This document shows, one piece after another, positions 1 through 6,000 of a DNA stretch of 64,000 bases; within the stretch, counting starts at the first letter, position 1; every line of letters begins with the position of its first letter. This DNA comes from Escherichia coli (lineage in GTDB: Bacteria > Pseudomonadota > Gammaproteobacteria > Enterobacterales > Enterobacteriaceae), in the NCBI RefSeq assembly GCF_003790525.1, contig NZ_CP033632.1, one strand, 5' to 3'. A program made the position numbers.

Positions 1-3000
1 TGTCATCGCCGAAGGCCACCTGTTCAGCTGCTTTTTCCAGGGCAATAATGATGGCCTTGTGCCATGTGGGAGACTGAAAACGCGTCATAGCGTGCAACAC
101 ATGTTTGCAGGCTACACCAGTCAGATCAGGGTTGCGGATTTTGGGGAATGCATACTCTTTTGGCGGCGCGACAGCATAGTTACCAGCCGTGGCCATATAA
201 CGATACCAGTATTGATGGCGTCCACAATCACAGTCGAAAGATACCCGGCCCTTGCAGAGATCGGCAGCGATTCGGGCTTTTTTCGCACCGTCTTCAGCAA
301 TTTCCTCAACGGCTTTATCCCATTCCTCAAATCGAATTCTGACACGGTGATGCTGGTGGACCGACTCATCCGAGGCATTAACAGATATCAATGCAAGGTT
401 GTGTTTTAGCCCGAGGAATGTCGCGGCTTTGATCCCTGTGCCATCAGAAACCTTGTTGTTAGCGCGTTTTATATCAATGCTGGTGGACTGCGCCACCAGC
501 TGAGCATAGGTAATGCCGGGTACCGTGCTCTTGAATTTGGTTTTATGAGCCTGCCTTGAGGTGTTGAAACTGCGTATATCTTCGGGCGTAAAGTAGGTGC
601 CATCTTTCTTTTTCCCAAGGCTGAGGAATGCCTCAAGTTCGCGGTTACGCATCCCCATAATCCTTGGGGTGAGTGTACGTCGCGCGTTTCGCCGATTCTG
701 ACGCTGCTGTTTACGGATAAGATCGAAGACCTTGTTAAAGTCTTTTGCACTTAATCCATCAGTCTGATAGCGACCAAGGTTGTCGCGAGCATATTCAGTT
801 GGCATTCAATTCCCTTACGCAATGGATAATGTCCCTATTACCTGGCCGTCATATTGGAAATGGCGAATCATTTCGCGGATCCATGTGGCAGGTGGGAGTT
901 TTAATTTTTTGCCAACAGTCATACCCTGAGACTCATCCTCAAGCCCGGCGGCGAGCGTCACAACCCAGCGTAGCTCTGCTATGCCCCACATACGGTAAGC
1001 CAGCAAATCCGGGCGATATTGCTCATCGGGAAGAACGTAATAAATCGTCAGATTCTTGTCGTTCGATTCACACATAAGCATCACCTCTTTGCGCAGCTCT
1101 GCCCTGAGTATTGGATCGGCTATGTTGCGGTCGTCATACCGCGACAGAGGATATTGCCGGGTGCTTTGGGTTGTAGTGATTGATGTAGCCATAGTCAGCC
1201 TGCCAGAAATAGATGATGGTGATTCTACCGCTAGTCATTTGTTGATTATTTAACTCAATAAAAGAAAATTATTAGTGCAATTTTGATTGTGAAATGTATC
1301 ATTCTGCCCTTAAGTAGGTTCTTCACGAGGAAACAAAATTGGCAGAACGTGTTGATGATGCAGAGCTGAGCATGAATCAGTTAGAAGCTCTCAAAGACAT
1401 GGCCATCGATAACATCAGAAAGCAGGCACAGGTCGTGAGTCAGGTATTTACAGGTAAGTGTCGTTACTGCAATGAACCGATTGAATCAGGCATCTATTGT
1501 GACGCTGAGTGTGCGCAATGGCACAGGGAAGAGCAGGCAGCAAAACAGCGTAAATATGGCATGCGACCGGCAGGATTTGACTGATTATGTTGCGCTTTAC
1601 TGAGGAAGAGTTTCAGGCTTTTAGTGAGCGTAGAAATAAGGGGCAGTCCAGGCCAAAAACCAAAAAGGATCCATTCTTATCGCTTGCGCCGGTAAAAGAA
1701 GTTTCTCCACATGCGAAGGCACTTGCAGCACTGGCAAAGACCCCAGACCTGCGCGACGGAAATTGCGAGCACTTCGAGCAGGTTTTCATTTTTGATTACT
1801 TCGAACGCAAGCACCCTGACATCTATGAGCTGTTGCATGCAACGCCTAACGGAGGGAAACGTTCAAAAGCAACCGCCGGGAAAATGAAGGCTGAAGGGCA
1901 GAAAAAAGGTTATCCGGACATGAGTCTCGATAAAGCATGCGGTATTTATCACGGCATGCGAATTGAGCTTAAAGAACCAAATGGTAAAGCCCCGACGAAA
2001 GAGCAGATCGCCTGGATGCGCAGGCTTAGAGAGGAAGGTTACTACGTCGTTCTTGCGTATGGTGCAGAACAAGCGATAACCGCCATCCTGGAATACATGA
2101 GCCTTAAAAAGGGTGAGGCTATTGAGCATGTATTGAACGGTGACAAGTGGTTGTTCGCTACGTGAAATAATAAATTAATTAGTGCATATGTGTTCTTTGA
2201 TACAGCGCACATTAACATCGGGAGAATAATCGTGTCATCCAAGGCTAATTATGAATCGCTGGCATCGATCATGCCGCGTAATGAACAGGAAGCAGATGCT
2301 GTAGTGGACCCGGTAATCGCTGAAATGAATGCTCGCCTGGAGGCTGAATTTGCAGCTGAGAATGAACATACCACCCAGGGCGACTAGGACTGTTTTTTGT
2401 GTCGGTAGCGGTCCGTCACTCACTCGTGAGGACTGTGCTGCTATAGAAAAAACTGGCTGTTCAATCATCGCGGTTAACAATTCCTGGCAGATGTTCGATG
2501 ACATTTATGCCTTATACGCCGGTGATTTGTCATGGTGGAAGCAATACGGATCCACCATACCGGGAGGGAAATTCCGCAAAGTGACAGCCAACCTGGCGGC
2601 GGCGAAATCATTTTCGTTGGAGTACAGGCGATATTGTGGACCGGCGGAAGGGGTAAATAGCGGCGCGCAGGCTATCAGTCTGGCTGCTGAATCAGGGGCT
2701 GAAGTAGTTGTATTAGTCGGCTATGACTGTTCTCTGCAAAACGGCCTTCATTGGCATGGCGCGCACCCTCAAGCCCTACGGAATCCAACGCAGGTGTCTA
2801 TTTCAAAATGGCAACAGCAGTTCCTGGATACCCGCAAAAAACACGCAGATTTACATATTTTGAATGCAAGTAGGAGCAGTGCAATTCAATGTTTCCCAAG
2901 AATAAATTTAGAGGCAGTGATCGCGTTATTATCGTCGGCAGTGGCCCAAGCGCCGCAAACTTTGTTGCGCCGCGCGGAGTGCCGATTATAGCGGTCAATG

Positions 3001-6000
3001 GGGCCATCGACTGGCTGAACCGCGCTTCTTATTTTTTCACACTTGATCCATCGGCAGACAATATGCGGCGCGTTGGTCGTGGCCGCCGTCGCCGTGGTGT
3101 TTGTTATTGCATGGCACTACCCGATGTTAAAGAACGTGAAGTCAGAGACGGCGTTCTGTGCTTCCGTCGTGTGGCTGAACGTGGCATGGAGCCAAAAAAT
3201 ATGAATTCTCCCGAGTGGTGGGCGTGGCGCTGGTCCGCACATTTCGGACTTTGCGAAGATGAGAATGAAATTGCCAGCGGCAATAGTGCATATGGCGCTC
3301 TGAACCTGGCTTTCCATATCGGATTCAAACATGTCGCCCTGGTGGGCGTTGACGCTACACAAGAACCACGCGTTCACTCCGGCGGCACGCCAAAAAATCT
3401 AAGTCACCTGCCTTTGTTATTCCAGTCTGCGCGTGAACAGATTGACGTTGTTTCATGCGGGAAAATGGGAGGTATTCCGCAGATGACTCTTAAAGAATGG
3501 CTGAAGAATACATGATGGCACCCACAATTTATCACCGTATCGACGGTACCAAATACAGGAATGTCTGGGTTGTTGGTGATCTGCATGGTTGCTACACCAG
3601 ACTGATGTCCGAACTCCATCGTGTGGATTTTGACCCGGCGCAGGATTTACTGATATCGGTCGGCGACCTTATTGATCGCGGTACTGAAAATGTCGAATGT
3701 CTGGAACTATTGCAGATGCCCTGGTTCAGGGCAGTGATGGGGAACCATGAGCGGCTGATGATTGATGCGTTAAGTCCAGATGGCAACGTGAATAACTGGC
3801 TAATGAATGGCGGACAATGGTTCTTCATGCTGGACACTGATCAGGAAATATTAGCCTGGGCGCTGGTGGAGCTGGTAAAGCGTCTGCCCTATATCATTGA
3901 GTTGAACACCGGGCAAGAAACTATCGTTATAGCCCATGCCGACTATCCGGATAATGAATACCAATTCGGTAAGGAGGTGCCGCTTTTCAACGTTGTCTGG
4001 GCGCGCGAGCGTATCAGTGATTCGATGGATGATATTGGTGGCGAAATTTCGGGCGCAGATCGTTTTATCTTTGGTCACACTCCGGTGAAAAGCCCGAAGA
4101 CATTCTGGAATCAGCAGTATATCGACACTGGTGCCGTATTTTGCGGAAACCTGACATTGATGAAAGTGAAAGGTGATGGTGCAGCATGAAGATTGCTTTA
4201 GTTTTTCGCTCTGGTGGTGACTATAACGCTTCCGATGTGCAGTGGCTGGTTAATCAACTGCCAAAAGGCTATGAAATTATTTGCCTGACAGACCTGAAGC
4301 GTTTACATGTACCTGGCGTCAAAGTTGTCCCATTGATCAACCAGTGGCAAAAGTGCCGTGGCTGGTGGGCGAAAATCGAGTTGTTCCGACCGGATATAAC
4401 AGATGATCTGTTCTATCTGGATTTGGACACAGTTATTGCCGGTGATATACGCCCAATCCTTGAGAATCCACCAACCAGCTTCACCATGCTTAGGGATTTT
4501 TACCATCCACAATATCGTGGTAGCGGTGCCCTGTGGATACCAAATAGTGTAAAAGCGCATATCTGGAGTTCATTCTGGCAAGATCCGGAAGGTTGGATTT
4601 CTCGTTGTGTCACTACTGAGTGCTGGGGTGATCAGGGGTTCTTACGGAAGGTTATGGGCGATGATACACCAGCATTTCAGGATCTGTATCCAGGATGGTT
4701 TGTAAGTTACAAGGCCGATGTTGTGGAACCTGGTTCAAAATATGCGAGCGCGCGTTACTCCAGGGGGAATGGGGCATTACCAAAGGACTGCCGAATAATC
4801 TTTTTCCACGGCAAACCGCGACCTCGCGAAGTGTCAGAGGATTGGCTTCCCCTTATTAGCTCGTTTTTTGAGCGAGAATCAGAATAATATTGCTCTAATA
4901 ATTCCATATTTTTAAAACGTGATGTACACTCATCACGTTTTTTATTAGAGCAATCTACAAGGTGCACTATGTGGCCATTCCGACGGAAATATCACTACTG
5001 GCTGATCGCCTTTGTTACGCCGACCGGCGGTATCAGGCATGTCATCACCAGGTATCGCAACAAGAGACTCACCTTAGCCAGAATTTTACAGGCTGCCATA
5101 GGTGAGGGACTGGATACAAATTGCGTAGTCCTTCCTCCTTCATACTTAGGAAAAATGACCGAAGCACAAGCTAATACGGAACTTTGAAATGAGCACTTCA
5201 GCACAAAACCAATCAATCGAAAATGTATCTATCCCTGATGTCCTGAATGCCGGTATCCCGGCCATTATCCAGAACATCCGGGCCGCGCAACGCCGCGTTA
5301 GTTGTGATGACCTCACAGCACGTTTTTTTGATAATGCGGTTCAGTCAGCGGAGATGCTTCACGCACAGCTTATTGATGTTTATAACGCAGAAGCTGATAG
5401 CCATAACTCCCTGGTAGATGCAGCTGAAAATATGCAGTTGGATCTTGGTCTGAAGGGTAAAGAAATTGAAGAGCTTCAGCTGCAAATTGAACATTTGAAA
5501 CGCCAGCAACAGGACGCGATCGACGATGCGACGCATGACGCCAACCAGCGTGCTGATAATGCCGAACGTATAAGCATTGAGCTGGAAACAAAACTCAATG
5601 AAATGACCGCGATGGTTGAACTGCGGAACTCACAGATTTCAACGCTAAAATCTCAATATAAAGAGATCATGAAACTTGATCCTTTTAACCTTGAGAAACG
5701 CTATAACAAAGCTAAAAGCGAGCGACAGGAACTGCGTAAGCAGGTCGCCGACCTTAACCAACAGCTCAAAAAAACTATTAAAGATGCAAGCGAAGCGCGC
5801 GTGGCATTTGCTAATAAAAAAGCAGAGGTTACCGCGCTGGTTAATGAGAATGCCAAATTTGCGACGCTCAAGAAGGAAATGTATGGCATTACTGAGCGCC
5901 GTTTCCCTGCAAGCAAACTTCATCCGACGTTAGGGCAAATCTCCTTCTTCCCGCGCCTCCTGGCTTATGGGATCTCATCGCCTAAAGAGTTCAATAACGA

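Follow-up and report, generated by a model that had tools for sequence, protein, structure and literature searches.

Conserved dual coding in the pmgO/pmgP overlap of a P1-type phage, and a putative sugar-transferase cassette shared with other phages

Genes overlapping on the same strand of bacterial and phage genomes usually share 1 or 4 nucleotides (nt). The genes pmgO and pmgP of phage P1 share far more, and the pair resembles both long phage gene overlaps and Rosetta-stone fusions, in that pmgP starts inside pmgO and the same two proteins occur elsewhere as one polypeptide. Among cellular enzymes of possible relevance, WaaZ is the transferase of the third 3-deoxy-D-manno-oct-2-ulosonic acid (Kdo) residue, KdoIII, of the lipopolysaccharide (LPS) inner core and belongs to glycosyltransferase family GT73 (PMC8476585; PMC6358824). 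Here, we analyze the pmgO/pmgP pair in a stretch of 64,000 nt from an Escherichia coli assembly (contig NZ_CP033632.1), hereafter the window. We propose that pmgO and pmgP are separate, genuinely overlapping genes encoding diverged Rossmann-type sugar-transferase paralogues, which together with PmgQ would form a paired cytidine monophosphate (CMP)-sugar transferase module with Kdo as the favored sugar. We hold this combined reading with moderate confidence.

The window represents a P1-type phage. Positions 1300-5200 are 99.9% identical to Punavirus P1 MH422554 and 98.2% identical to the reference P1 record, to which they align in one uninterrupted piece as long as the query. In the window, pmgO (2329-2991, plus strand, 220 amino acids (aa)) and pmgP (2889-3515, plus strand, 208 aa) overlap by 103 nt (2889-2991), with pmgP in the -1/+2 frame relative to pmgO. 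An earlier note made from the sequence alone had described two adjacent open reading frames (ORFs) of about 200 aa with an out-of-frame overlap of about 100 nt, which agrees with these measurements. The genes, their overlap and a "sialyltransferase" label were all previously in public records. The P1 record AF234172 lists pmgO at 79592-80254 and pmgP at 80152-80778, each with a "putative morphogenetic function". The P7 record names the same genes hdmB and hdmC, annotated with "head morphogenesis", and its overlap is likewise 103 nt.

The overlap is genuine and conserved. It was compared among 82 fetched P1-like loci and four divergent relatives, namely a Salmonella P1-like plasmid (L087), a metagenomic P1 relative (L088), a further P1 relative encoding a PmgO of 50% identity (L004; logan SRR14843460_11017) and the lambdoid prophage phiNP of Citrobacter rodentium (L089; PmgO 41% and PmgP 57% identical). 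A related-locus search with the PmgO alignment retrieved only 80 near-identical P1 clones; the divergent loci were reached through encoding contigs and a tblastn search of a phage collection. A 141-nt stretch that includes the overlap shows no difference among 78 of the 82 P1-like loci, and the other four carry single substitutions without indels. The arrangement is unchanged in 19 phage records. It is also kept where the DNA is quite different, in relatives of 41-70% identity whose overlap measures 70 nt (Salmonella plasmid), 49 nt (metagenomic relative), 109 nt (L004) and 94 nt (phiNP). In P1 and these four relatives, the pmgP ATG is embedded in the same (Gln/Lys)-Cys codons of pmgO (cAATGt or aAATGt) and the relative frame is equal. 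PmgP homologues cover 100% of the protein and align from Met1. Furthermore, the GSGPS loop of PmgP sits within the overlap, and the start of pmgP therefore cannot lie further downstream. The near-invariance among P1-like loci, the persistence in divergent relatives, the conserved ATG and frame, and the motif inside the overlap together establish two overlapping genes. Compared with usual same-strand overlaps, the pair differs both in length (49-109 nt) and in the conservation of the ATG position between P1-like myophages and a lambdoid prophage.

Beyond these relatives, the junction between the two genes is plastic among phages and ranges from a fusion to the 109-nt overlap. A metagenomic phage (L003) encodes both proteins as one in-frame fusion (P0051, 376 aa), and overlaps of 4 nt, 11 nt and 37 nt are found in the Xanthomonas jumbo phage XacN1 (L095), a Pseudomonas prophage (L091) and the coliphage EP_H11 (L094), respectively. 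Gene callers often mishandle this junction, and the pmgP-like genes of L004 and phiNP were cut to 173 aa and 176 aa. The annotation of EP_H11 leaves a gap between two genes, and this gap holds a full-length, MptE-like homologue of PmgP (47% identity; L094:7001-7603; OP688485.1 42813-43415) that was apparently missed owing to the 37-nt overlap with the upstream PmgO-like gene. The PmgP family is under-counted because the long overlap defeats gene callers, with homologues truncated or absent in several public annotations.

Three-frame translations of P1 and the four relatives suggest that only a part of the overlap codes for conserved sequence twice. The VGSGPS nucleotide-binding loop of PmgO (residues 25-30) is encoded at 2401-2418 (plus strand), well before the overlap, and the VGSGPS loop of PmgP (residues 16-21) at 2934-2951 (plus strand), inside it. 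The first ~46 nt of the overlap (2889-2934) encode a conserved C-terminal segment of PmgO (CFPRINLEAVIALLS) and, in the other frame, the N-terminus of PmgP. In the remainder, an unconserved PmgO tail shares its DNA with the IIVGSGPSA...IIAVN region, which is conserved in PmgP. Residues conserved in both proteins dictate no more than about 49 nt of the overlap. True dual coding thus appears to extend over about 46-49 nt, where the DNA for the last predicted conserved helix of PmgO also encodes the first strand and the variable N-terminus of PmgP. The other ~54 nt of the P1 pmgO tail are what would be expected from the chance absence of a stop in that frame. Consistent with this, PHROG 4603 spans only residues 25-202 of the 220-aa pmgO ORF, PmgO homologues end 0-20 residues past the conserved "...LExxIxxLS" segment, and the AlphaFold2 confidence (predicted local distance difference test, pLDDT) drops to 67-79 in the P1 tail. 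The final ~18 codons of P1 pmgO are unconserved and would be non-functional read-through, with an end set by a chance stop. The earlier note had proposed placing the stop of pmgO by alignment with P1 homologues. The stop at 2991 matches the P1 and P7 records, but it comes late relative to the conserved protein.

Translation of pmgP would start at its own conserved ATG inside the Gln/Lys-Cys codons of pmgO. A candidate Shine-Dalgarno sequence, AGGAG, lies within pmgO at 2872-2876 (plus strand), 12 nt before the ATG. The AGGAG is kept in the Salmonella plasmid and the metagenomic relative, and L004 carries instead a GGAG 5 nt upstream. Inspection of the phiNP sequence revealed no clear Shine-Dalgarno sequence for pmgP.

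Two other explanations of the overlap deserve consideration. The earlier note had left open a real overlap, a mis-called start or a frameshift, and only the first of these stands. An artefact, either a sequencing or assembly frameshift splitting one fused gene or a mis-called pmgP start, is scarcely credible, even though annotation errors are common at this junction, as in L004, phiNP and EP_H11, and one homologue is indeed a single fused gene. That fusion, which the earlier note had named as a finding that would speak against an overlap, belongs to a different phage, where it is intact and natural, and is no sign of a sequence error in P1. The identity of 78 of the 82 P1-like loci, the lack of indels in the remaining four, and the same arrangement in 19 phage records and in relatives of 41-70% identity argue against a sequence error, and the position of GSGPS and the alignment of homologues from Met1 argue against a mis-called start. 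The artefact explanation was rejected based on the 82 P1-like and five divergent loci. The overlap might also act as a programmed -1 ribosomal frameshift cassette, with some ribosomes yielding a PmgO-PmgP fusion that mimics the natural one. In line with this, all five long-overlap loci have pmgP in the -1 frame relative to pmgO, an in-frame fusion exists in L003, and the pmgO frame of P1 contains two heptamers, T_TTC_CCA (2892-2898) and A_AAT_TTA (2904-2910, plus strand), the latter of which would formally allow -1 slippage into the pmgP frame. However, we judge A_AAT_TTA to be a chance occurrence. It occurs in P1 only and is missing from the Salmonella plasmid, the metagenomic relative and phiNP, the last of which lacks any heptamer. 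T_TTC_CCN is a poor slippery motif and a by-product of coding Cys-Phe-Pro (CFP) and Met-Phe-Pro (MFP) in two frames. The 85 nt downstream (2911-2995) show no stimulatory structure, with a minimum free energy of -28.6 kcal/mol compared to a shuffle mean of -29.35 (z 0.22). A frameshift product would also be devoid of the conserved last PmgO helix, which the natural fusion P0051 retains, and pmgP has its own ATG at the same codon position in five loci, as well as a full-length conserved N-terminus. With unconserved heptamers, no downstream structure and a separate ATG, programmed frameshifting was rejected as the main mechanism and is very unlikely.

PmgO and PmgP are real but old paralogues. 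A pairwise BLASTP alignment covers the N-terminal motif region only (39% identity over 36 aa, E 0.003). Family profiles compared by hhalign align over 160 columns with a probability of 98.9% (E 4e-17), including the motifs GSGPS, IIAVN, NSG...A..LA..LG, LVG(Y/V)D and a C-terminal "P(R/Q)(I/M)xLE/KEW". Hence, the tandem paralogy claimed in the earlier note does not rest on a chance motif match, and the Rossmann-like nature that it assigned to the GSGPS motif is borne out by the folds described below. In a 21-sequence alignment of PmgO, G28, P29 and S30 are invariant and S27 is nearly so; in a wider set of 59 sequences, the corresponding G17 and S19 are invariant, with S16 and P18 nearly so. In the PmgP alignment, P20 never varies, and S18, G19 and S21 hardly do. 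Both proteins carry the G-x-G-P-S loop after an N-terminal beta-strand that characterizes the MptE-like/Maf/GT42 superfamily. The only Pfam match is the MptE-like family PF01973, with 23.6 bits for PmgO (E 4.9e-5) and 21.2 bits for PmgP (E 2.6e-4), both below the gathering threshold of 34.6 bits. Some homologues have a precomputed PF01973 match. The PmgO family comprises 3,001 representative clusters at 50% identity (E<=1e-3), and PmgP comprises 326 clusters at 90% identity.

Searching the PDB with single sequences retrieved nothing for either protein. AlphaFold2 models were built from alignments of 59 (PmgO) and 30 (PmgP) homologues and reached pLDDT 92.9 with a predicted template modeling score (pTM) of 0.88 for PmgO, and pLDDT 93.9 with pTM 0.91 for PmgP. 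The best structural match for both models is a Maf glycosyltransferase. The Maf flagellin glycosyltransferase 5mu5 scored 14.6 (2.5 A over 162 residues), followed by the MptE 6-hydroxymethyl-dihydropterin diphosphokinase (HPPK) 8sd5 (11.5), the sialyltransferase Cst-I 2p56 (11.2), SteA (10.6), thiamine pyrophosphokinases (7.7-10.4) and animal GT29 sialyltransferases (8.1-9.8). For PmgP, Foldseek ranked Maf 5mu5 first (E 7e-4), then MptE 8sd5 (E 2.6e-3), Cst-I and Cst-II. Both proteins are thus predicted to adopt the Maf/MptE/Cst-sialyltransferase fold, which is common to CMP-sugar transferases and pyrophosphokinases. PmgO-like domains occur in other phages fused to Big_1/Big_13 Ig-like domains, to a TOD1/MUCI70 glycosyltransferase-like domain (P0289, 465 aa) and, weakly, to a sulfotransferase-like segment, the other such proteins being P0179 (556 aa) and P0284 (380 aa). 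These fusions hint at surface-glycan or decoration roles in other phages.

The two genes travel together. PmgO and PmgP are adjacent in all eight divergent loci with PmgO (L003, L004, L087, L088, L089, L091, L094 and L095), and PmgP occurs without PmgO in an Ochrobactrum prophage (L092). PmgP is the more conserved partner; the P1 protein is 54-62% identical to its counterparts in the Ochrobactrum and Pseudomonas prophages. A PmgQ homologue follows pmgP in L003, L004, L089, L091, L092 and L094. The PmgQ profile matches the GT8 Skp1 alpha-galactosyltransferase 6mw5 (E 2.3e-4) and glycogenin (~5e-4), and D79-L80-D81 is invariant. Carriers of the cassette include P1, the lambdoid Citrobacter prophage, HK97-like prophages of Pseudomonas and Ochrobactrum, a 111-kb coliphage and Xanthomonas jumbo phages. 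Besides the in-frame fusion P0051, there are tandem fusions of two PmgO-like domains (P0189 and P0210), which suggest that the PmgO-like domain works as a dimer. The fusion of PmgO with PmgP and their strict adjacency indicate that the two proteins may act together. They could function as a unit, be it by forming a heterodimer or by catalyzing successive steps, and overlap or fusion would keep them co-inherited and co-expressed.

Additional sugar enzymes flank the cassette, a GT4-like protein in EP_H11 and a TylF-like O-methyltransferase in XacN1. In L003, a fourth gene after pmgQ is nucleotide-sugar-transferase-like (weak Pfam Nucleotid_trans match, E 0.0048); a similar-sized gene after pmgQ in the Pseudomonas prophage has no Pfam match. 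L004 and L005 encode a KdsB equivalog (TIGR00466, 270 bits against a cut-off of 155) ~4 kb downstream. In L004 (10658-11892), the stop of kdsB overlaps the start of a pap homologue encoding a HAD_PNKP-type phosphatase, and the two genes are translationally coupled. KdsC, the Kdo-8-phosphate phosphatase, is likewise a HAD protein, so P1 Pap might act on a sugar phosphate, contrary to its labels as an "acid phosphatase" or a polynucleotide-kinase phosphatase. KdsB as a general companion of the cassette was rejected, with just six phage records encoding it.

That PmgO and PmgP are a pair of glycosyltransferases is likely, judging from profiles, models and gene neighbors. The family profile of PmgO matches Cst-II (E 1.4e-5), Cst-I (E 0.0045) and a lipooligosaccharide sialyltransferase in the PDB, and no kinase is matched. 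Against a 24-sequence WaaZ profile, hhalign yields full-length alignments of both PmgO (70.6%, E 3.9e-5, 173 columns) and PmgP (81.0%, E 1.2e-5, 189 columns). These matches, the sugar-enzyme partners and the kdsB gene of a P1 relative favor a transferase. The proteins could instead be small-molecule pyrophosphokinases or other nucleotide-dependent enzymes, akin to archaeal MptE or thiamine pyrophosphokinase, as the sole Pfam match (PF01973) and the Foldseek match of PmgP to 8sd5 would allow. We consider this improbable, given that the best structural match of both proteins is a Maf glycosyltransferase, the PDB profile matches are Cst sialyltransferases only, the similarity to WaaZ is full-length, the constant neighbors are glycosyltransferases and sugar-modifying enzymes, and one relative encodes KdsB. 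A role in virion morphogenesis, i.e., head assembly, as implied by the names pmg and hdm, is highly doubtful. It would agree with the P1 and P7 annotations and with the Pseudomonas and Ochrobactrum prophages, in which the cassette lies in the head-gene module straight after the major capsid gene. However, the predicted folds are enzymatic rather than structural. According to the study by Gonzales et al. (PMC9024508), 29 single-gene pmg/upf knockouts caused a plaquing defect only for pmgA, B, C, G and R, with plaquing and antirestriction unchanged in the other 24; PmgO and PmgP are not among the defective knockouts. The same study reports only PmgC and PmgG of the pmg set in the virion proteome, with PmgO and PmgP undetected. 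Genome-wide CRISPR interference (CRISPRi) found pmgO, pmgP, ppp and pmgQ non-essential, and the same source lists pmgO and pmgP as non-essential in the knockout study (PMC10695390). Based on knockouts, virion proteome and CRISPRi, the "morphogenetic" label is unsupported, and pmgO and pmgP are accessory enzyme genes. Sugar decoration of virion proteins by PmgO and PmgP is possible. A literature search found no functional study of pmgO, pmgP, pmgQ or hdmB-D.

The glycosyltransferase reading leads to the question of sugar and acceptor. PmgO and PmgP would transfer a CMP-activated ulosonic acid and, together with the GT8-like PmgQ, may build a short glycan. To our knowledge, E. coli K-12 makes CMP-Kdo as its only CMP-sugar and no CMP-sialic, CMP-pseudaminic or CMP-legionaminic acid, nor does P1 encode any such pathway. 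Kdo is therefore a plausible sugar, in line with the similarity to WaaZ and the kdsB gene in L004, although we put it forward only tentatively. For the acceptor, LPS core or a virion protein, we lean slightly towards the LPS core but have no firm preference. LPS is suggested by analogy, since core synthesis is the task of the cellular enzymes nearest to the three (WaaZ, and WaaO and WaaJ of GT8). The receptor of P1 is the LPS core, at the outer-core glucose. The receptor of phiNP is the LPS core GlcII (PMC6456863), and WaaZ-type third-Kdo glycoforms are without the terminal outer-core disaccharide (PMC6358824); by such a loss, the cassette could make it harder for progeny to re-adsorb or for superinfection to occur. 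A virion protein as acceptor is suggested by the position after the capsid gene in the Pseudomonas and Ochrobactrum prophages and by the analogy to Maf, a protein glycosyltransferase. In a more speculative and rather unlikely scenario, a Maf/Cst/WaaZ-like heterodimer and the GT8-like enzyme would act during lytic growth to add Kdo-containing sugars, made with host CMP-Kdo, to the LPS core, so that the receptor is destroyed or masked on the dying cell and its debris, or else to virion proteins. If true for virion proteins, this would be the first phage particle with glycosylation of the Kdo type.

Several observations weigh against our proposal. The PmgP profile has no sequence match to any solved glycosyltransferase, and PmgP is devoid of the H-W-H-G-x-H cluster of PmgO; PmgP could be non-catalytic. 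The similarity to the WaaZ profile is moderate only, at probabilities of 70-81%, and the curated WaaZ model TIGR04437 (cut-off 200 bits) gives 12 bits for PmgP (E 0.099) and no match for PmgO. The association with Kdo through KdsB rests on one phage type (L004/L005). KdsB is rare in phages, being encoded in six of 50,697 records by tblastn, none of them P1-like isolates, and it is absent from P1. A target on the virion rather than LPS is favored by the HK97-like prophages, where the cassette directly follows the major capsid gene and precedes the head-tail connector genes (L091:5179-8835 in Pseudomonas; L092:4900-8213 in Ochrobactrum). At the level of translation, the spacing of the AGGAG to the pmgP ATG is longer than usual. 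The location in the two HK97-like prophages is also reminiscent of capsid-glycosylating transferase genes in mycobacteriophages.

In P1, the pair is part of a pmgN-pmgO-pmgP-ppp-pmgQ block with an overlap at each junction. Upstream of the block lies a C1 repressor operator (Oppp / Op(hdm); 2172-2188, minus strand), placed by transfer from the P1 and P7 annotations. The small ORF pmgN (hdmA; 2190-2387, plus strand; PHROG 2350, function unknown) overlaps the start of pmgO with its 3' end. It corresponds to 79495-79650 in the P1 record and to 81834-82031 in P7. Its start is ambiguous, with the P1 annotation pointing to window position 2232 and P7 hdmA to a GTG at 2190. CRISPRi classified pmgN as essential and the knockout is nevertheless viable, which may reflect a polar effect. 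The start of pmgO is ambiguous as well, either ATG 2329 (59-nt overlap with pmgN) or ATG 2362 (Met12; 26-nt overlap), and either suits the homologues. The pmgP product matches PHROG 2111 over its full length (E 1e-131). The next gene, ppp (3497-4189, plus strand), encodes a lambda-type Ser/Thr metallophosphatase according to the P1 annotation and Pfam Metallophos (E 9e-16), and shares 19 nt with pmgP and 4 nt with pmgQ. pmgQ (hdmD; 4186-4887, plus strand) encodes a GT8-like glycosyltransferase of the retaining, DxD type (PHROG 1962 "glycosyltransferase", E 5e-128). The ppp gene is found between pmgP and pmgQ only in P1-type phages, and pmgQ directly follows pmgP in L003, L004, L089 and L091. 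Since pmgQ comes straight after pmgP in every other cassette, ppp seems to have been inserted. At the DNA level, the similarity of phage D6 to this region is confined to ppp (89.6% identity). Outside of the block, pmgM (1587-2165) encodes a sub-threshold VRR-NUC nuclease domain (Pfam E 2.9e-4), and RefSeq names its product a VRR-NUC protein or Holliday junction resolvase. Its "morphogenetic" label is probably wrong, too.

P1 is among the most heavily used phages in genetics, and about a fifth of its genes carry placeholder names. Recognizing pmgO, pmgP and pmgQ as a mobile, widely shared and probable sugar-transferase cassette gives three "unknown" P1 genes a specific function that can be tested. 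The cassette points to phages that may edit their own receptor or decorate their own particles. The additions made here are the conserved dual coding of the overlap with its plastic junction, the occurrence of the cassette in unrelated phages, the links to WaaZ, GT8 and KdsB, and the rejection of frameshifting. The functional inference is a modest addition. It concerns a very well-known phage and an uncharacterized member of an enzyme superfamily that is itself known.

How closely PmgO and PmgP approach known transferases differs among the systems compared. Maf of Magnetospirillum (PDB 5mu5; MAF_flag10 / MptE-like domain) is a multidomain protein of ~630 aa, whereas PmgO and PmgP are single domains of ~200 aa with just 15-16% identity to Maf and devoid of its flagellin-binding domains. 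In addition, a nonulosonic-acid pathway is not evidenced in P1 or E. coli K-12. For Cst-I and Cst-II of Campylobacter jejuni (GT42), the sequence match is limited to PmgO, and the PmgO-Cst alignment of hidden Markov models stops at the GxD strand. In Cst-II, the catalytic His and the phosphate-binding Tyr residues are presumably located after this strand, a region that reads H-W-H-G-x-H in PmgO and R-x-x-x-G-G...L-S-H-L-P in PmgP. The "sialyltransferase" label is probably wrong about the sugar, as the host offers no CMP-sialic acid. KdoT of A. baumannii was discarded as a relative, being an unrelated GT-B/ELM1-like enzyme. WaaZ (TIGR04437; PF27901) has the motifs SGP(S/T), IIAVNG and A...A(Y/L)xLG...G(V/L)D in common with PmgO and PmgP, and the E. 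coli protein also remains below the PF01973 cut-off, at 29.6 bits. PF27901 itself provides only a faint precomputed match, on the fused homologue P0051. WaaZ differs in its length of ~283 aa, with an insertion of ~60 residues, and in being encoded by a single chromosomal gene of the waa locus rather than a tandem pair. Its donor is CMP-Kdo, the one CMP-sugar of the P1 host, and a P1 relative carries kdsB.

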